A stretch of DNA of 27,098 bases from Chiloscyllium plagiosum (Eukaryota): contig NC_057718.1 of NCBI RefSeq assembly GCF_004010195.1, positions 92,949,404 to 92,976,501 of the forward strand, read 5' to 3'. Every line of letters starts with the position of its first letter. The stretch's first letter is position 1. The notes beneath the pieces were generated by a model that was given only the letters and a program-made list of their open reading frames with translations, had not been told where the DNA came from and made no database searches. Below are positions 2,474 through 26,528 of this stretch, piece by piece. The position numbers were made by a program, and so were the translations under genes.

Positions 2474-2985
2474 TGCCCTTAGTAGAGTGATATGCTCTTC
2501 TTGTCGGAGGTGGGAGTTTAGGGACGTTTCTGTGGCCAGCAGCGAAAAAGCAGAATGGTGTGTTGCCTCCCTGGTGCCAGGATCAAGGATGTCTCAGGAA
2601 GGGTGCGGAATGTTCTCAAGGGGGAGAGGGCCAGCAGGAGGTTATTGTACATGATGGAACCAATGACATAGGAAGGGAAAAGAATGAGATTCTGAAGGGA
2701 GAATATAGAGTGGTAGGAATTTAAAAAGGAGGTTCTCGAGAGAAGTAATATCTGGATTACTCCCAGTGCTACAAGCTAGTGAGGACTGGAATAAGAAGGA
2801 TAGAGTAGATGAATGCATGGCTGAAGAGCTAGTGTATGGGAGAAGGATTCACATTTTTGGATCATTAGAATCTCTTCTGTGATAGAAATGACCTGTACAA
2901 GAAGGATGGATTGCACCTGAATTGGAAGTGGACTAATATACTGGCAAGGAGATTTGCTAGAGCTGCTTAGGAAGATTTAAGCTAG
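2474..2985 (+). pseudogene. CR1 ORF1 remnant (CxxC N-terminus fused by deletion to SGNH/GDSL esterase-like domain)
   Basis: LSRVICSSCRRWEFR, then RMVCCLPGARIKDVS..VIVHDGTNDIGR..DLYKKDGLHLN (GxND and DxxH blocks of CR1 ORF1 esterases). Confidence 0.85.
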
Positions 2986-3118
2986 TAAAGTGGGGGGATG
3001 GGACCCAGGGAGATAGTGAGGAAAGAGATCAATCTGAGACTGATACAGTTGAGAAAAGACGCAAGTCAAACAGCCAGGGCAGGCAGGGACAAAGCAGAGA
3101 ACAAGGTAGGACTGACAA

Positions 3119-3743
3119 ATTAAACTGCATTTATTTCAATGCAAGAGGCCGAACAGGGAAGGCAGATGAACTCAGGGCATGCTTAGGAACATGGGACTGG
3201 GATATCATAGTAATTACGGAAACATGGCTTAGGGATGGACAGGACTGGCAGCTGAATGTTCCAGGATGCAAACACTACAGAAAGAATAGAATGGGAGGCA
3301 AGAGAGGAGAGGGAGTGGTGTTTTCGATAAGGGAGAACATTACAGTTGCGCTGAGGGAGGATATTCCCGGAAATCCATCCAAGGAAGTTATTTGGATGGA
3401 ACTGAGGAATAAGAAAGGGATGATCACCTTATTAAGACTATATTATAGACCCTCAATAGTCAGTGTGAAATTGAGAAACATCTTTGTTAGGAGATCTCAG
3501 TTATCTATAAGAAAAATAGGGTAGTTATGGTAGGGGATTTTATCTTGCCAAACATAGACTGGGACTATCATAGTATGGAGGGTTTAGATGGGGAGGAATT
3601 TGTTAAGTGTGTACAAGAAATTTTCCTGATTCAGTATGTGGATGTACCTACTAGAGAAGGTGCAAAACTTGACCTATTTTTGGGAAGTAAGGCAGGGCAG
3701 GTGACTGAGGTGTCAGTGGGGGGCCAGTGACCATAATTCTATT
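3119..3743 (+). pseudogene. CR1 ORF2 APE endonuclease remnant
   Basis: LNCIYFNARG..DIIVITETWL..LYYRP..MVGDF.LPNIDW..PTREGAKLDL..SDHNSI. Confidence 0.9.
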
Positions 3744-3890
3744 AGAGTCATAGAGTCATACAGATGTACAGCATGGAAGCAGACCCTCCAGTCCAAATCG
3801 TCCATGCTGACTAGATATCCCAATCCAATCTAGTCCCACCTGCCAGCACCCAGCCCATATCCCTCCAAGCCTTTCCGATCCACATACCCA
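3743..3890 (-). mobile_element. HER1/CR1 3' end fragment, antisense, inside the large CR1
   Basis: Reverse complement closely matches about 1919-2061 of this window, including the (CTCTATGA)n tail (+ strand TAGAGTCATAGAGTCATA). Confidence 0.92.
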
Positions 3891-4901
3891 GAGAAAGTGA
3901 GGACTGCAGATGTTGGAGATCATAATTGAGAGTGTGGTGCTGCAAAAGCACAGCAGGTCATGCAGAATCTGAGGAGCAGGAGAATCGACGTTTCAGGCAT
4001 AAGCCCTTTATCAGGAATGAGGTTTGTGGGCCAGGGGGCTGAGAGATAAATGGGAGGGGGATTGCGTTGGGGGAGAGGTAGCTGAGAATGCGATAGGTAG
4101 ATGTAAGTGAGGGAGAAAGTGATAAGTCAGAGATGAGAGTGGAACGGATAGATGGGAAATGTGATGGATAGGTCAGGAAAGTGGTGCCGAGTTGGAGGCT
4201 TGGGACTGAGATAGTGGAATTTGTTATTCTGGGAACAGATGCGGCAGAGGTGGAAGAATTGGGAATGAGGGGTGGCATTTTTACAGGAGGTAGGATGGGA
4301 GGACGTGTAGTCGAGGTATCTGTGGTAGTCAGTAGGCTTGTAATAGATGTCCGTGTTGAGTTGATCGCCGGAGATGGAGATGGTGAGGTCCAGGAAGGGG
4401 AAGGAGGTGTCTGAGATGGTCCAGGTGCATTTGAGGTCTGGGTGAAAGGTGTTAGTGAAGTTGATGAACTGCTCAACCTCCTCGTGGGAGCACAAGGTAG
4501 CGCCGATACAGTCATTGATGCAGCAGAAGAACAGATGGGGTTGGCGCTGGTGGATGGACTGTTCAACGTACCCGACAAAAAGGCAGGCATAGCTGGGTTC
4601 CATGCAGGTGCCCAAGGCTACCCCTTTGGTTTGGAGGAAGTGGAAGGATTGGAAGGAGAAGGTGTTAAGGGTGAGGACCAGTTCAGCCAGGCACAGCCAG
4701 CCAAGTGGAACTCCCCACCTACATTCGGAACACCACCCACGCACTTCACCTCCTCCAAGATTTTTGTTTCACTGGCCCCCATCTTCATCGCGGACATCCA
4801 GTCCCTGTACACATCTACCCGCCACGATGTAGGCTTCCAAGCACTCTGTTTCTTACTCTCATGCCGTCCCAACCAATAACCTTCCACGGCCACTCTCATC
4901 C
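3891..4901 (-). mobile_element. Penelope-like element (RT remnant plus terminal repeat), internal deletion near 4212, 5' part (4707-4901) inverted
   Basis: Minus ORF LAELVLTLNTFSF..QTKGVALGTCMEPSYA..INDCIG..FLDLTI..YYKPTD..YLDYTSSHP (PLE RT); plus-strand piece ELPTYIR.TT..IFIADIQSLYTS (RT motif A); terminus homologous to 23753-23880; flanked by ACCCA at 3886-3890 and 4902-4906. Confidence 0.9.
3983..4018 (-). ncRNA. Degenerate minimal hammerhead ribozyme in Penelope terminal repeat (G8 to A)
   Basis: Minus strand ATTC-CTGATAA-A-GGGC-TTAT-GCCT-GAAAC-GTC-GATT; the core differs from CUGANGA at G8. Confidence 0.65.
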
Positions 4902-4951: not shown

Positions 4952-6160
4952 GGATGACTAAAGAAATTGAGGGTTTAGTAAAAAGAAGGAAGCAAATGTC
5001 AGGTATAGACAGGATAGATCAAATGAATCCTTAGAAGAGTATAAAGGCAGTAGGAGTAGACTTAAGAGGGAAATCAGGAGGGCAAAAAGGGGACAGGAGA
5101 TAGCTTTGGTAAATAGAGTTAAGGACAATGCAAAGGTTTTTACAAATACATTAAGGACAAAAGAGTTACTAGGGAGAGAATAGGGCCTCTCAAAGATCAG
5201 TAGGGCTGCTTTTGTGTGGAGCCGCAGGAGATGGGGGGAAATGCTAAACAAATATTTTGCATTAATCTTTATTGTGTAAAAAAATATGGAAGGTATAGAA
5301 TGTGAGAAGATAGATGGAGACATTTTCAAAAATGTCCATAGTACAGAGGAGGAAGTGCTGGATGTCTTGAAAGGCATAAAAGTAGATAAATCCCTAGGAC
5401 CGGATCAGGTGTATCCTAGAACTCTGTGGGAAGCTAGGGAAGTGATTGCTGGGCCTCTTGCTGAGATATTTGTATCATTGATAGTCACAGGTGAGGTGCC
5501 AGAAGACTGGAGGTTGGCTAACATGGTGCCACTATTTAAAAAAGGTGGTAAGGACAAGCCAGGGAATTATAGACCAGGGAGTCTGACATCGGTGGTGGGC
5601 AAGTTGTTGGAGAGAATCCTGAGGGACAGGATGTGCATGTACTTGGAAAGGCAAGGACTTATTAGGGATAGTCAACATGTCTTTGTGTGTGGGAAATCAT
5701 GTCTCGCGAACTTGATTGAGTTTTTTGAAGAAGTTACAAAGAGGATTGATGAGGGCAGAGTGATAGGCATGATCTATATGGACTTCAGTAAGGCATTCGA
5801 CAAGGATCGCCATGGGAGACTGGTTAGCAAGGTTAGATCTCATGGAGTACAGGGAGGACTAGCCATTTGGATACAGAACTGGCTCAAAGTTGGAAGACAG
5901 AGGGTGGTGGTGGAGGGTTGTTTTTCAGATTAGAGGCCTGTAACCAGTGGTGTGCCACTAAGATCAGTGTTGGGTCCAATACTTTTCATCATTTATATAA
6001 AAGATTTGGATGTGAGCTTAAGAGGAATAGTTAGTAAGTTTGCAGATGACAACAAAATTGGAGGTGTAGTGGACAGTGAAGAAGGTTGCCTTGGATTACA
6101 ACGGGATCTTGATCAGATGAGCCAATGGGCTGAGGAGTTTAATTTAGATAAATGCAAGGT
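4952..6160 (+). pseudogene. CR1 ORF2 reverse transcriptase remnant
   Basis: KSLGPDQVYPR..VPEDWRLANMVPLFKKG..NYRPGSLTSVVGKLLE..YMDFSKAFDK..GVPLRSVLGPILF.IYI.DL..KFADDNKIGG; in-frame stops. Confidence 0.93.
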
Positions 6161-6957
6161 CCTCCTTTGTCCATCGAGTAATCAGGCCAAAATCTATACT
6201 TTGGCTTTAGAAAGTCTGTAGTCCAGTGGATTTCTGATGATGACATCAAGTTATTATAGAATCAACATTAACAATGCAAATTAGGGATACTGCGTTAAGA
6301 ATTGGTTTTAACAGATTACTTTAAAGCTAATTATAAAAGCAAGTTTGTTTTTAACAGGGCTCCACCATGGAATTATTTTATAAGTTGAATGTCGTTCAGA
6401 ACATTCCTTTCCCAATTTCGTAATACTTTGAATATGGAGGCATGCATATTCAATGTTACTTTGTTTTAAATGTATTGTATAAACGCTTCCAAGTGAAAAA
6501 TTATTGACATTTGAAATACCAGAGAGAATAAAAGTATGTGCATTATATTACTTTTTCCTGTCTGCTATTAATCATGGGGAACAGTAAGTATCTGGGACAA
6601 GATTACAAGGGCCCAGTGGAGTTAATGTTTGTAATGGCCCTTCAAACTATAAAAAAAGAACAAGACAAAGGTCCAAGGCCTATATTGCATGATCAAGATT
6701 GAAAAGAGTGTGACCTAGGGAAGTTGAGAAAAGTGAACAATAAAAACTTGTGTTTAGAAATATGTGTTGAATACTGAGATTATGTGATAGTTATCATTCG
6801 TTGTCACTTTGTCTCTTTGTCACTTTTTGGAACTTAGCTAAATGTGTTATTGCATTACTGCTACATCTTTTGCTGGAAATTTAAGATGATATTTAGGGTC
6901 AAACAAGTATTTGGACACCTGTTATAATGCCTTCTCCTTTGACATTAGAGGCAATGC

Positions 6958-7088
6958 TTGAACAAAAAAGTCATTGACCTGAGACGTTAACTCTTCATTT
7001 CTCTCCATAGATGCTGCCTGAACTGTTGGCTACTTCCAACACTTCCTGTTTTTCTTTCAGATTTACATTTGCTGTATTTTCCTTTTGT
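6958..7088 (+). mobile_element. Solo decayed Penelope-type terminal repeat with hammerhead vestige
   Basis: GTCATTGACC-TGAGACGTTAACTC..CTCTCCATAGATGCTGCCTGAACTGTTG..TTCCAACA resembles the arms of 23241-23698. Confidence 0.65.
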
Positions 7089-7159: not shown

Positions 7160-8030
7160 AGTCCTCCCACATTCCATCAGGGAACTGGGGTGGAGGGTAT
7201 TGCAGGCATCAATCCTGCATAAGAGCAGATTGTGATGGTACACGGACTTCTAGCCTAGCTGTTTATACTGCGGCGCTGTGGAGTCCATGGACTAAGTGTA
7301 TTTGCACTCCCTTTTTTGGTTATGTGAAGAACCTCAAGTTGTGTTTTGGTTGCACTTCAGCCCTATGCTTCTAATCTTTGGTGACTTGATATGGAGGGGT
7401 ATGGGCAGATCTCCTCATGTGTCTGCCCCTGGGCTTGGCCAAGCTGGCTATAAACAAGTCCAGGCATTGGGCTGTGGAAGTGGAATGGGGGTGATGGGAG
7501 GGGTCATTGCTGCCCACTGCCTGGCTATTCTCTGTAGTTCTGATTAGGCTGGGGCAGCACGGAGGCTCAGTGGTTAGCACTGCTTCCTCACAGTGTCAGA
7601 GACCCGGGTTCAAATCCCACCTCGGGTGACTATCTGTGTGGAGTTTGCACATTCTCCCTGTGTCTGTGTGAGTTCCCTCTGGGTGCTCCGGTTTCCTCCC
7701 ACAATCCAAAGATGTGCAGGTCAGGTGAATTGGCCATGCTAAATTGCCCATTGGGTTCAGGGATGTGTTAATGAGGGGTAAATGTAGAATAGGTTTGGGT
7801 GGAATACTCTTCTAAAGATTGGTGTGGACTTGTTGTGCTGAAGAGCCTGTTTCCACACTGTAGGGATTCTATGAAAACTTCTATGCATCATTGGAGAGGG
7901 AACATGCTGTGTCCAGCAATGCTCTTGATGCCTTTAGAGTGAGATGGGGCACCATGGGGTATGTTTTGCTTTATTTTCCCTCCAGTTCAGTTCCTGCACT
8001 CTCTCCCTAACCCGCTCAATTTTTGATGTT
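7160..8030 (+). mobile_element. Old Tx1/L1-clade LINE, ORF2 C-terminus, interrupted by HE1 at 7551-7873
   Basis: Decayed frames ELGWRVL..CLYCGAVESMD*VY (CxxC..ES..H zinc motif)..LHFSPMLLIFG..LGLAKLAINKSR, resuming after the SINE as SLEREHAVSSNALDAFRVRW. Confidence 0.75.
7551..7873 (+). mobile_element. HE1-type V-SINE
   Basis: A/B boxes (GGCTCAGTGG, GGTTCAAATCC), V-domain, CR1-like tail ..CCACACTGTAGGGATTCTATGA. Confidence 0.92.
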
Positions 8031-12561: not shown

Positions 12562-12595
12562 GCATATAACAAAATTATATTATTTTGTTATATGC
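12562..12595. repeat. Perfect 14-bp inverted repeat with 6-nt spacer
   Basis: GCATATAACAAAAT-TATATT-ATTTTGTTATATGC. Confidence 0.9.
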
Positions 12596-16953: not shown

Positions 16954-17070
16954 ATAGATATAATCATCTGACCTCAGCATTTTAAAAAAATATGATGACT
17001 GATTATTCAAGAGATCAGGAATATTTTTTAACACACTGAGTTGGCATTATCAAAAAACTTATTTTCATGC

Positions 17071-17389
17071 ATCATAGGATCCCTACAGTGTGGAAGCAGG
17101 CCATTTGGTCCATTGAGTCTGCATTGACTCTCACCCAGACTCACCCCTTACCTTACCCTGCATTCCCTATATCTAATCCACCTAACCTAAACATCACTGG
17201 ACACTACAGATAATTTAGCACAGCCCATCTACTTAACCTGCACATCTTTGGACTGTGAGAAGATGCTGGCGCACCTGAAGGAAACCCACTCAGACACAAG
17301 GAGAAGACAATCGCCCAATGGGTGGAATTGAATCTGGGTCCCTGCACTGTGAGGTTACAGTGCTCACCACTGAGCTACCATGCCACCCC
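17071..17389 (-). mobile_element. HE1-type V-SINE with probable TTCATG target-site duplication
   Basis: Antisense HE1 head, V-domain and tail; TTCATG at 17064-17069 and 17391-17396. Confidence 0.88.
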
Positions 17390-17483
17390 ATTCATGTCTT
17401 GAATTTCAGATTATTCTAAAACATTTGTTCAACACAAGCTGAGGAGGAATGAAATGTTATTGATGTTGAAATGGTAGTGGTCT

Positions 17484-19590: not shown

Positions 19591-20497
19591 TGAGATTCGT
19601 CTTCTACAAAAAAAGATTTTGCAAAAGCCATGTGGACATGATTTGGCCATATCATTCCAGATCTCAACTCAAAAATTAGCTTCTAGATGGTATGTAACTG
19701 CACACGATAGTTGTTGTAAGTTTAAACTGGATTAACTCGGGCAAAAAAAGAGTTTAAAATATAACATGAAGAATAAGAAAGATGATCAAATGAAACAGGA
19801 AATAAAAATATGAGCACAATTAAAATTTCAATCTAAATGGTGTTCGATGTTAACTTGGGTTGTATAGAGTTAACAATACATTAATGAAACCACTTATAGT
19901 GTCTCAGTCCCTTTTACTCATAATTTTCAGTGTCACAGCATATAACTGACTGGCCCAAGATTAGGGAAGTTTTGCTGAACTTGAAAGCAAACAAAATAGA
20001 ATCCAAACAGTGAGATAAAGAGCACTGCTATAAGGATCTTTCTGATCTCGCAAATCTTAAAATGCAGCTGCAAGTCCTTAACATATGAACTATGGTGCTG
20101 CAGGTTTAACTTTTATTTACTAAATATTCATTCAGACTAATTGATAACACAAGTCATAATATACGCAGAAAAAAGTTTACATTAATTTTACCATCATGCG
20201 TTTAGCCTGTATTAACTATGAATTTTCTCTATCATAAATTGAACATAATATACACCTCCTCAACCTATTAACTCACTCACATCTTCCTGGAACTACATGC
20301 ATAATTACACCTTTACAGCTGTGGAGCTGCCATATTTTGACAATGTTGCCAGCCCCAGACCCAAATTGTTATTAGTTTTAAACAATGAGAAGAGTAAAAC
20401 ATCCAACCCCAAGCTGTGGAAGATATTATTGCTTTCGTTTTGCTCTGATCCAAGAGTGATTCATATCCTCAATTTTTCTTGTCCATTAATCTACTTT

Positions 20498-20840
20498 CAT
20501 AGAATCCCTACAGTGTGGAAACAGGCCATCTGTCCCAACAAGTCCACACCAAGTCTCCCAGGCAGACCCATTCTCCTACCCTATTGCTCTGCATTTCCCC
20601 TGACTAATGTATCTAACCTACACATCCCTGAACACTATGGGCAATTTAGCAGGGCCAATTCACCTAACCTGCATATCTTTTCTGGACTGTGGGAGGGAAT
20701 TGGAGCAACTGGAGTAAACCCATGCAGACATGGGGAGAACATGCAAACTCCATGCAGACAGTAGCCCAAGGCTGGAATTGAACCCGGGTCTCTGGCACTG
20801 TGAGGCAGCAGTGTTAACCACTGAGCCACCATACCGCCCA
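20498..20840 (-). mobile_element. HE1-type V-SINE with TACTTT target-site duplication
   Basis: Full antisense HE1; TACTTT at 20492-20497 and 20841-20846. Confidence 0.92.
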
Positions 20841-21661: not shown

Positions 21662-21971
21662 GCAAGATGGCTCAGTGGTTAGTACTGTTGCTTTACAGTG
21701 CCGGGGACCTGGGTCTACTTCCAGTCCCAGGTTACTGTCTGTATGGTGTTTGCACAGTATGTGAGAGTTTCCTTTGGGTGTTCTGGTTTCCTCCCACAGT
21801 CCAAAGATGTGTAGGTTAGGTGGATTGACCATGCTAAATATTGCTCTGTAGTATCCAGATTAGTTGGGTTGGCCATGGTAAAACCCTGCATGAAGTTACA
21901 GGCATGGGTGGGGAACTGGGTCAGTGCAGACTCAGTGGGACGCATGGCCTCTTTCTGCATTGTAGAGATTC
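21662..21971 (+). mobile_element. HE1-type V-SINE (older, diverged)
   Basis: TGGCTCAGTGGTTAG head, GGTTTCCTCCCACAGTCCAAAGATGTG V-domain, CR1-like tail. Confidence 0.85.
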
Positions 21972-22057
21972 CAAGACTGCGATCAGCAGTGCTTTTGTTA
22001 TTCTCCCAGTGTCATTGTAGGATGAATGAAAGAACAAATGTGCACTTTTCACACACT

Positions 22058-22396
22058 TCATAGAATCCTTCATAGGTGTGGAAACAGGCCATTCAACCCA
22101 ACAAGTCCACACCGTCCCTCCGGACAGCATTCTGCCCAGACCTATTGCCCTGCATTTCTCCTGACTAATGCACCTAACTAATGCATCACCGAACACTATC
22201 ACAACTTAGTGTGGCCAATTCACCTCACCTGCACATCTTTGAACTGTGGGAGGAAACTGGAGCACCCTAAGAAAACCCACGCAGACACAGGGAGAATGTA
22301 CAAACTCCACACAGGTAGACACCCAAGGCAGGAATTGAAGCCGGGTCTCTGACACTGTGAGGCTGCAGTGCTAACCACCGAGCCACCCTGCCACCC
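22058..22396 (-). mobile_element. HE1-type V-SINE
   Basis: Full antisense HE1, from tail TCATAGAATCC to head GAGCCACCCTGCCACCC. Confidence 0.92.
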
Positions 22397-23240
22397 ACGT
22401 GCTATCTCATTTAAATACACCACCAATTCCTACTTTGCAACCATTCATTCCAACACTCTCATGTGAAAACCTGAAGATAATACTAATTTAGTACATTTGT
22501 TGCTCCTTTGTCTTCCATGTAATAGTTTACTGAATCATCCCCAGTCAGCCCTACCCTTTTTTAGTACATTGGTTCAATTTTGTGTCTTACTAAAATCCTT
22601 TATTATTTACATTATTTCACCTGCCAGTCTTTCTTCACATCCTCCCTTTGGCTTTCTAATCTGTCTCTGTTTCTCTCTCTATAATTTCTGGGCTTTGTTC
22701 AAAAGCACCAAAAACAAACCTGTAATATTTTCAGGATGGGCTGACGGGCATATTCTCACATCTTATATTTGTTGTGGCTGTAATTTAGCTGTTTGAATCC
22801 ATACTGCTTTGCACCAACACAAAGCGAGTTCAAAGTAATGCCCCAATAAAATTTGGCAATAGCTTGCCTCTGATGGAATTCTGTCACAGATTATCAAGAA
22901 TAAAGCAGCAGAGCAACATGTGACATTTCAGCCTGGGTGCTTCTGTTATCCACATAAGCACCTTCACTCCAACTCCAGTTGCTTTATAACTTGTACAAGC
23001 ATGTCATTGCTGTTTCACGATTCATTTAAAATGCAAAGGATAAGACAGAGAACTGTGCTCTCCATAGCAACAACTGACACTCCACTTCACAAGTAGTGTC
23101 GGTCAGATGTAGCCTGCTGGATTCAGGCACTCAAGTTCATGAGCAAAGGGCCATGCATGACAGAGAGATATCATTATGCCGTATATAAGTTAAAGGGAAC
23201 AGAGTGCATTCACTAATGTTTGGAATAGACCCAAGATTAT

Positions 23241-23698
23241 GATGGGAATAAATTACTGCAGATGCTGGAATTTGTACTGAAAACAACTGATGATGGCGAT
23301 CACAGCAGGTCAGACAGCATCCATGGAGAGAGAGCAAACTGACGTTTCGAGTCTAAATGACTCTTCATCAGAGCTGAAGTGAAGTGTGGAGGGAATAGCA
23401 TTGAAGTGGGAGGCGGAGGGCAGGTGTAGGGGTAGTGAGTGAGGATGCTGGTGGAGAAAAATGTTGAAAGTTCAGATTAGGTGATTCTCATCTGATCACT
23501 TTATCTGAACTATCAACACCTTTTCTCCACCAGCACTCTGCACCCACTACCCCCACACACCCCCAACCCCAAACCACAGCATAAATGCTATCCCCTCCAC
23601 ATATCACTTCAGCACTGCTGAAGAGCCATCTAGCCTTGAAATGTTAGCTTGCACTGTCTCTCCATAAATGCTAAGATCTCCAGCTTTTGTTGCTTTCA
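23241..23698. mobile_element. Non-coding fold-back element of two inverted Penelope-type terminal repeats, 10-bp TSD
   Basis: Arms about 23278-23485 and 23495-23698 are imperfect reverse complements around a 9-nt loop; CCAAGATTAT at 23231-23240 and 23699-23708; the left end ACTGCAGATGCTGGA matches Penelope termini at 3903 (one mismatch) and 23766. Confidence 0.85.
23337..23375 (-). ncRNA. Minimal type I hammerhead ribozyme, core intact
   Basis: Minus strand AGCT-CTGATGA-A-GAGTC-ATTTA-GACTC-GAAAC-GTC-AGTT: CUGAUGA and GAAA boxes, perfect 5-bp stem II, GUC cleavage triplet, 4-bp stem I (one G-U), loopless palindromic stem III (ACGU). Confidence 0.8.
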
Positions 23699-23752
23699 CC
23701 AAGATTATTGTTTTAAGACCAGGCAAAGGCCAGCAGAACACTATTCTATCAG

Positions 23753-24975
23753 AGAGAAAGTGAGGACTGCAGATGCTGGAGATCAGAGTCAAAGTGGATG
23801 CTGGAAAAGCATATCCAGTCAGGCAGCATTGAAGGAGCAGGAGAGTTGACATTTTGGGCAAAAGCCCTTCGTTAGGAATGTGGGTGGGAAGGTCCTTATG
23901 AATAAAAGGGTGGGGGTGGAGGTGGGGGGAAGGTAGCTGGGAAGGCGATAGGTGGATGCAGGTGGTGGGTGATAGTGATAGTTCGGATGGGCAGGTGAAT
24001 TGGATAGGGGGGATGGAAGATGGATAGGTAGGACAGTTCAAGAGGGCAGTGCCGGGTTGGAGGGTTTGAAAGAGGATGAGGTGGGGTGAGGAAAGGTAAG
24101 GAAACTGGTAAAGTCGACATTAATGCCGTGTGTTTGGAGGGTCCTATGGTGGAAGATGAGATGTTCTTCCCCAGTCATCAGGTGGCTTGGATTTAGTGGT
24201 GGAATTGAAGTGGTCGGCCACAAGGTGGTGGGGTTGTTTGGTGAGTGTATCCCAGAGATGTTCTCTGAAACGTTTCAAGAATTGGCATTCTATCTACCCA
24301 ATGTAGAGGAGACCACATCAAGAGCAACGGACACAGTAGGTAAGGTGTTTGGATGTGCAGGAAAATCTCTGCCATATGTAGAAGGATTCTTTGGGGCCTT
24401 GTATAGAGATGAGGGGGGAGTTGTGGGTACAAGTTTTACACTTTTTGTTGCAGCAAGGGAAGGTGCCAGGAGTGGAGGATGGGTTGTTGGAGGGTGTGGA
24501 CCTAACAAGGGTGTCTTGGAGGGAATGGTCTCTGCGGAATGCCAATAGGGGTGGGGCGGTAAACATATCTCTAGTAGTGGGGTCTGTTTGTAAGTGATGG
24601 AAATGGCTGATGATAATGTGCTGTTTCCAGAGATTTGTAGGGTGTAAGGTGATGGCCACAGGAATTGTATTCTTGTTGCAATTGGAGAGGTGGGAATCAA
24701 GGGCAGAGGTGCTGGAAATGGATGGGATGTGCTGGAGGGCATTGTTGATCATATGGGAAGGGAAAATGTGGTCATCTTGGATGTCCTGGATTGGAATTGC
24801 TCCTCCTTGAGCAGATACAGCTGAGGCAGAAGAATTGGGAGTAAGGGATAGTGTTTTTATAGGAGGGAGGATGGGAGAAGGTATAATGGGTTTGGTAGCG
24901 GTGGGAGTCAGTGGGTTTGTAGTCGATGTCTGTCTTGAGTTGGTCATTGGAAATGGAGATGGAGAGGTCCAGGAA
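23753..24975 (-). mobile_element. Penelope-like element 3' portion (RT thumb, GIY-YIG endonuclease remnant, terminal repeat)
   Basis: Minus frames FLDLSISI..DIDYKPTD..SSHP..IPYSQF; PLLAFRRDHSLQDTLVRS..GTFPC..KCKTC..FSCTSKHLTYCVRCS*CGLLYIG..RFREHL (PLE GIY-YIG); decayed hammerhead CTAACGA-A-GGGC-TTTT-GCCC-AAAAT-GTC at about 23845-23878. Confidence 0.92.
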
Positions 24976-26429: not shown

Positions 26430-26528
26430 TGCATGTTGGCACAATGATTAACATTGCTGCCTCATGGTGCCAGGGCCCTGGCTTCAATTCCAGTCTGTGT
26501 GCAGTTTCCAAGTTCTCCTTGTGTCTGA
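26430..26528 (+). mobile_element. HE1 5' fragment cut by the following CR1
   Basis: TGGCACAATGATTAACATTGCTGCCTCA..GGCTTCAATTCC..TGTGTGCAGTTT..GTTCTCCTTGTGTCTG. Confidence 0.7.

Follow-up and report, generated by a model that had tools for sequence, protein, structure and literature searches.

How did a non-coding 458-bp unit, built of two inverted arms with a hammerhead motif in each, come to stand between two copies of a 10-bp sequence in a shark genome, and does it belong to a family that moves as such? The unit and its flanking copies occupy positions 23231-23708 of the 27,098-nt stretch of Chiloscyllium plagiosum DNA analysed here, referred to as the window. The original prediction suggested a short, ribozyme-processed parasite family. 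We consider it very probable that the unit consists of two 5′-truncated, hammerhead-bearing 3′ ends of Penelope-like elements placed head to head, likely the product of one old insertion and likely immobile since then.

Architecture of the unit

Two inverted arms lie head to head between the copies of an exact 10-bp duplication, with the following features in window coordinates.

23231-23240, plus strand: left copy of the target-site duplication; exact, with two copies only in the window
23241-23485, minus strand: left arm, read from alignment as the 5′-truncated 3′ end (pseudo-LTR region) of a Penelope-like family, with tail
23241-23277, minus strand: 37-nt tail, present in the left arm only; no partner in the arm alignment
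23337-23375, minus strand: minimal type I hammerhead with intact core and 5-bp stem II, from a pattern scan
23486-23494, no strand: junction, the 9-nt unpaired centre, from the sequence
23491-23698, plus strand: right arm, read as the 5′-truncated 3′ end of the left arm's family, without tail; about 80% identical to the left arm
23615-23645, plus strand: decayed minimal hammerhead motif, one core letter altered and stem II disrupted
23699-23708, plus strand: right copy of the target-site duplication, directly adjoining the right arm
23753-24975, minus strand: neighbouring broken RT/GIY-YIG-coding Penelope-like element of another family, from tblastn

The duplicated 10-mer, CCAAGATTAT, is found exactly twice in the 27-kb window, at the two positions listed, and not at all on the minus strand. 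When random position pairs were drawn from the same window, a 10-mer common to both boundaries was encountered for 19, 43 and 140 of 39,808 pairs (within 5, 10 and 20 nt, respectively), and the chance of such a boundary 10-mer is about 0.0005-0.001. Family contigs start to align at 23245-23253, on the inner side of the left duplication copy. At 20% pairwise divergence, an exact 10-bp duplication is expected to remain intact only about one time in ten. It should be mentioned that five letters of the right copy (23699-23706) resemble the family sequence expected there, one base out of register, so that the right boundary is slightly ambiguous; this likeness may reflect chance or target-RNA microhomology at priming. 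The duplication bounds both arms, and the unit was probably inserted in a single event, as had been proposed.

Aligned as reverse complements, the arms share 159 of 200 aligned letters, with transitions making up 20 of the 41 mismatches. A tighter alignment gives 157/196 identities and 20 gap columns, and the blastn comparison of arm with arm returns an E value of 7e-62. For the 37-nt tail of the left arm, homology was found at the very 3′ termini of the neighbouring Penelope-like elements, and the right arm has a deletion of about 10 nt near 23673. The inner ends of the two arms lie within 4-9 nt of a single point. At the centre, family records align from 23491 and from 23494, and four of the nine spacer letters (23491-23494) probably belong to the right arm since other family copies align from 23491. 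A 6-bp palindrome lies beside the centre at 23493-23498. The original prediction thus described the unit correctly in its exact bounding duplication, its reverse-complementary halves and the roughly 37 nt by which the left arm keeps more of the terminus.

A strong RNA hairpin, also anticipated, is predicted for the unit, with fold z scores of -15.4 for the plus and -19.4 for the minus strand and none of 100 shuffles equal. In the Rfam search of the window, all six matches were below threshold. Two microRNA models on the hairpin scored far below their cut-offs and were taken as matches to the hairpin shape.

Homology of the arms to Penelope-like elements

Two RT-coding elements, both broken, are present in the window at 3890-4900 and 23753-24975, together with a stub near 6955-7085. 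With the RT and GIY-YIG protein P0022 as query, tblastn placed residues 279-592 at 24975-24107 (E 9e-40), the ORF ending near 24107. A 140-residue piece of the 3890-4900 element yielded 38 homologues from 108 candidates, the best of them in cartilaginous fishes at 76% identity, and one homologue with RT and GIY-YIG domains aligns to the 23753-24975 element up to the end of its ORF. These homologues identify the RT-coding elements of the window as Penelope-like. Of the five ORF pieces in the window, four had no Pfam match and one is an unrelated RT.

Alignment of the left arm with the 3′ ends of both RT-coding elements gives 150/246 and 129/204 identities and z scores of 9.2 and 8.6, values reached by none of 300 dinucleotide shuffles. 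The hammerhead and the portion 3′ of it account for this signal. The inner halves of the arms alone gave no significance against these neighbours (17-204 of 300 shuffles equal or better), and the whole right arm aligned weakly, with 9 and 164 of 300 shuffles as good. From the left-arm alignment, we infer that the arms derive from the 3′ termini of a separate, though related, Penelope family. Should the alignment hold over the whole arm, its inner end would fall near 23998 in the neighbour, about 110 nt downstream of the ORF end near 24107. A Penelope origin of the unit had been proposed and is supported by these alignments. The accompanying claim that the unit differs from the RT-coding Penelopes of the window stands at the level of the family; at the same time, the left arm is clearly homologous to their 3′ ends.

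The arms were matched by none of the 38 homologous proteins in any frame, and a search with 58 residues translated from the left arm gave no longer protein, a weak test; the non-coding character of the unit is supported. Around the two RT-coding neighbours and the stub, no convincing duplication was found, the best being 6-7 bp and away from the ends.

Several observations concern these neighbours themselves. The 3890-4900 element is internally inverted: its minus strand encodes residues 386-551 of the homologue P0001 (4696-4211) and its plus strand residues 320-386 (4708-4900), and these parts are contiguous and not duplicated. This is the shape of an L1-type twin-priming inversion, not of a mirror copy. 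The same element passes from the RT thumb region directly to its 3′ end. The stub at 6955-7085 is about 130 bp of a related Penelope 3′ end on the plus strand, with a decayed hammerhead region, and matches the left arm at 79/119 positions. Another Penelope-like element, among the most abundant sequences in the aligned runs, has its 3′ end only 44 bp away from the unit (23709-23752).

Hammerhead motifs

The pattern scan, with a check of core and stem II, agrees with the original prediction of an intact hammerhead on the minus strand of the left arm (23375-23337) and a decayed one on the plus strand of the right arm (23615-23645). By the established hammerhead numbering, the predicted cut in the left motif falls between 23341 and 23340 on the minus strand. 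At the deviating positions of the right motif, most family contigs read the canonical letter (in run X5, 754/805 depth units at 23618 and 4681/5047 at 23626), and the decay is therefore most simply placed after insertion. Rfam reported no hammerhead family at the unit at E<=5, and minimal hammerhead motifs presumably escape its models. A degenerate hammerhead pattern had no matches in metagenome contigs and none in viral contigs.

The predicted folding of the left stem II depends on its context, the pairing probability falling from 0.995 for the isolated arm to 0.0 within the complete unit. In an excerpt of PMC4209133, in vitro cleavage by a single minimal hammerhead is described as undetectable. 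The unit was originally thought to have been self-cleaving whichever strand was transcribed. With one minimal motif per strand, stem II predicted to be unpaired in the whole unit and no detectable in vitro cleavage by a single minimal motif, such action is unlikely. As passengers of the terminal repeat, the hammerheads are predicted to be buried in the hairpin.

It is noted that family depth falls sharply just upstream of the hammerhead, from 47,189 to 10,748 to 1.4 across 23351-23431 in run X5. Together with the strand switches that gather at 23371-23375, this suggests that many family copies terminate at the upstream border of the motif, and divergence of the G-rich stretch of the unit may add to the drop.

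Family abundance and the centre of the unit

Contigs of three public runs (X5 from organism A, X10 from organism B and X14 from organism C) were placed on 23000-23800 at 80% likeness. Organism A is the best match, and the runs used, including the RNA run X21, were 4 of 24. For X5, X10 and X14, respectively, unique flank depth is 9, 9 and 32, and depth over the left hammerhead is 47,189, 80,752 and 187,148. The arm family is very abundant, the summed contig depth not being a copy number.

Right of the centre (23486-23512), depth is 3231, 8602 and 21,388 in the three runs, and left of it (23459-23485) 37, 34 and 304, which corresponds to ratios of 87, 256 and 70. Copies of a fixed palindrome would be expected to align through the centre and to fill both bins. 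The fall in depth indicates that almost no other copy has the centre of this unit. The bin left of the centre still has 4-10 times the depth of the unique flank, and given this residue a few such copies, a handful at most, are possible.

Among the 15 joints listed of 479, none switches strand at the centre (23480-23500). Five lie at 23371-23375, the upstream edge of the hammerhead, and may represent further fold-back copies centred elsewhere. Another three cross from one arm to the other (23393-23402 and 23538-23557); our reading is that these are single copies nearer to one arm on the outside and to the other on the inside. Switches with unequal ends, from 23337 to 23373-23375, are also present among the joints listed. 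Two long records start to align at 23491 and extend for 205 and 117 further letters beyond the aligned part. The individual pieces viewed were 24 of >106,000.

A mobile family with a fixed centre, as first envisaged, would be a short, non-autonomous palindrome that is transcribed, cut by its hammerheads and inserted again as a whole. The residual depth left of the centre would fit such a family, as would the failure of a translated left-arm frame, in a weak test, to find a coding parent, and the joints listed are 15 of the 479. Against these points stand the fall in depth across the centre in all three contig runs and the lack of centre joints among those listed. In addition, stem II is not predicted in the whole unit, and cleavage would presumably remove the 3′ end with the priming region. 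According to excerpted text of PMC11167929, hammerhead activity is dispensable for insertion in vitro. We regard a fixed-centre mobile family as highly unlikely. Among the few open-access titles listed for a fixed-centre palindromic non-autonomous Penelope family and for twin priming with Penelope, none dealt with the point, and neither did any of the 20 of 44 titles listed for sharks and Penelope.

Alternatively, two members of the family could have inserted independently, back to back, with the 10-bp repeat arising by chance. The great abundance of the family, the 20% difference between the arms and the five family-like letters in the right duplication copy would suit two insertions. The low chance of the boundary 10-mer does not, and copies that reach so far inward are a minority, the hammerhead bin being 6-11 times deeper than the inner bin; that two of these minority copies should end together without a gap is thus unlikely. 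This explanation is very improbable, and a single insertion of both arms is preferred.

Age of the insertion and transcription

The original prediction called for a search in related sharks for an unoccupied orthologous site carrying the 10-mer once. In organisms B and C the site proved to be occupied, and no empty site was seen in either. Contigs run from the left flank into the element over 23000-23271 with 9 differences in organism B and over 23000-23278 with 12 differences in organism C. In organism B, a contig also spans the right duplication, connecting the right arm with the flank. The insertion is old, as judged from its presence at the same site in two related organisms. The arms differ by a corrected divergence of 0.23, against 0.044 for the flank compared with organism C, a ratio of about five that, if equal rates are assumed, places the insertion long before the split from organism C.

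None of the runs listed as holding the sequence is an RNA run. In RNA run X21, of which 2 in 100 raw polyA reads were examined, no reads fell on the unique flanks or on 23405-23485, the reads on the arms bear family-type letters, and no pile-up of read starts or ends was found; this library is unsuited to circles and says little on other tissues.

A strong predicted hairpin at a site that is filled in two related organisms could suggest a locus kept for the host, its hairpin transcript yielding, for instance, small RNAs directed against the family. Presence in close relatives, however, needs only age, and the arms, now 80% identical, have accumulated many changes that leave letters unpaired. 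The X21 reads also lean, weakly, against host use. This explanation is considered very improbable.

A putative route of insertion

On each strand, the duplication is directly followed by the antisense of the 3′ end of the element. This is the geometry of cDNA primed from a nick in the target. In such a route, the Penelope RT/GIY-YIG protein would nick the two target strands 10 bp apart, and each free 3′ end would prime cDNA synthesis on family RNA. One cDNA would begin at the outer start site and include the 37-nt tail, and the other would begin at the inner start site and lack it. Both would stop after about 210-245 nt, and their truncated ends would be joined head to head. The arms would have been identical at the start and have decayed separately.

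Excerpts of PMC11167929 describe a purified Penelope-like protein that cuts and extends both target strands and begins reverse transcription at two internal sites, the 30-40 nt tail being the stretch between them. Extension on both strands and the two start sites favour a route with two cDNAs, and we infer a twin-priming step on this ground. The same excerpts give ATT as a nick preference, and an ATT motif is present at only one of the two inferred nicks of the unit. Inverted products are not reported in the excerpted in vitro work.

A variant of the joining step is snap-back, in which a single cDNA folds at the centre, copies itself outwards and stops 37 nt short, again as a single dead-end event. 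That both arms end within 4-9 nt of one place is what self-copying predicts, and the palindrome at 23493-23498 also speaks for it; self-priming is also proposed for palindromic junctions in part of PMC3846280. Self-priming as outlined there would, however, need an antisense template for head-to-head arms. Snap-back by itself does not explain why the short arm ends one tail from the terminus, which two RT start sites do (PMC11167929, in excerpt), and the strand switches with unequal ends lean against it. Taken against twin priming as the way in which the arms were joined, snap-back is a serious but less likely rival, and twin priming is retained as the preferred route.

It is also conceivable, though unlikely, that the arms represent an ORF-less, Penelope-derived family with a natural 5′ end near 23491 that is mobilised in trans, its fold-backs arising when an RT dimer primes both nicks from two start sites. 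If this were true, an abundant shark family would let the unsolved last steps of Penelope insertion be read from genomes.

As a single decayed copy, the unit matters little, being one more example of an insertion shape already described. It is a clean case in that each outer end is arranged as expected of target-primed cDNA, the two differing by one tail exactly, and this fits the extension of both strands by a Penelope-like protein in vitro. The choice between twin priming and snap-back is an open point in Penelope biology, and young copies of an abundant family could separate the two.

Comparison with known insertion units

We have compared the unit with insertion units described in excerpts of the following papers. 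Typical Penelope-like insertions have an adjacent inverted, 5′-truncated copy at the 5′ end and a tail of 30-40 bp, often at one end only (PMC8557442). Inverted pseudo-LTRs and short extensions are treated as known Penelope peculiarities (PMC8969392). Examples from Adineta have duplications of 8-10 bp and an inverted copy that is 37 bp shorter, and in Pen2a this copy accompanies a 218-bp pseudo-LTR (PMC3846280). The head-to-head arms, one-sided 37-nt tail, 10-bp duplication and arm of about 210 bp seen here resemble the endonuclease-positive Penelope-like units so described (Penelope/Poseidon, Neptune). In contrast to such units, the present one has no ORF and no direct pair of pseudo-LTRs, only two truncated ends.

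The motifs share with the pseudo-LTR hammerheads in the excerpt of PMC4209133 a minimal core, an extra nucleotide before stem II and a palindromic stub of stem III. That excerpt also lists pairs of minimal hammerheads on opposite strands, 100-700 bp apart and probably from truncated elements, and the two motifs of the unit, about 250 bp apart on opposite strands, form such a pair. Stem II of the unit has 5 bp, and the opposite-strand examples given in the excerpt are from Schistosoma, no shark being named there.

Non-LTR retrozymes, reported from one chondrichthyan in the excerpted preprint bioRxiv 10.64898/2026.07.22.740005, are non-coding, carry a type I hammerhead and are related to Penelope pseudo-LTRs, as is the unit. 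They are tandem and head-to-tail with a hammerhead in each repeat, whereas the unit is inverted with one hammerhead per strand, and an assignment to the retrozymes was rejected for this reason.

Five features of a Penelope insertion unit are found here, namely 3′-end homology, a minimal hammerhead, an inverted truncated copy, a one-sided tail and a short duplication. By these five of the six features tested, the unit is a truncated Penelope insertion unit. On the sixth, an RT and GIY-YIG ORF in longer copies of its own family, the observations are the long records that extend beyond 23491 and the weak left-arm search that gave no longer protein. The original prediction had itself set out, as the case that would count against it, arms that are the ordinary terminal repeat of a catalogued autonomous Penelope; in structure, this is how the arms appear.

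MITEs and Foldback DNA transposons are also non-coding, with long inverted arms and a flanking duplication. Compared with them, the ends of the unit are unequal by 37 nt, its arms are 3′ ends of a retroelement and the whole unit does not recur.

Other features of the window

Seven copies of a dispersed repeat, up to about 350 bp long and 69-80% alike, are present in the window; we take it to be a shark SINE, probably.

1025-1309: dispersed repeat copy
7552-7876: dispersed repeat copy
17062-17390: dispersed repeat copy
20495-20840: dispersed repeat copy
21662-21858: dispersed repeat copy
22046-22398: dispersed repeat copy
26431-26527: dispersed repeat copy

Broken ORF pieces of a non-LTR retrotransposon lie at 5280-6221 and 2961-3524, with 5280-5930 matching Pfam RVT_1. 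A 34-bp near-perfect palindrome (94%) is located at 12562-12595.
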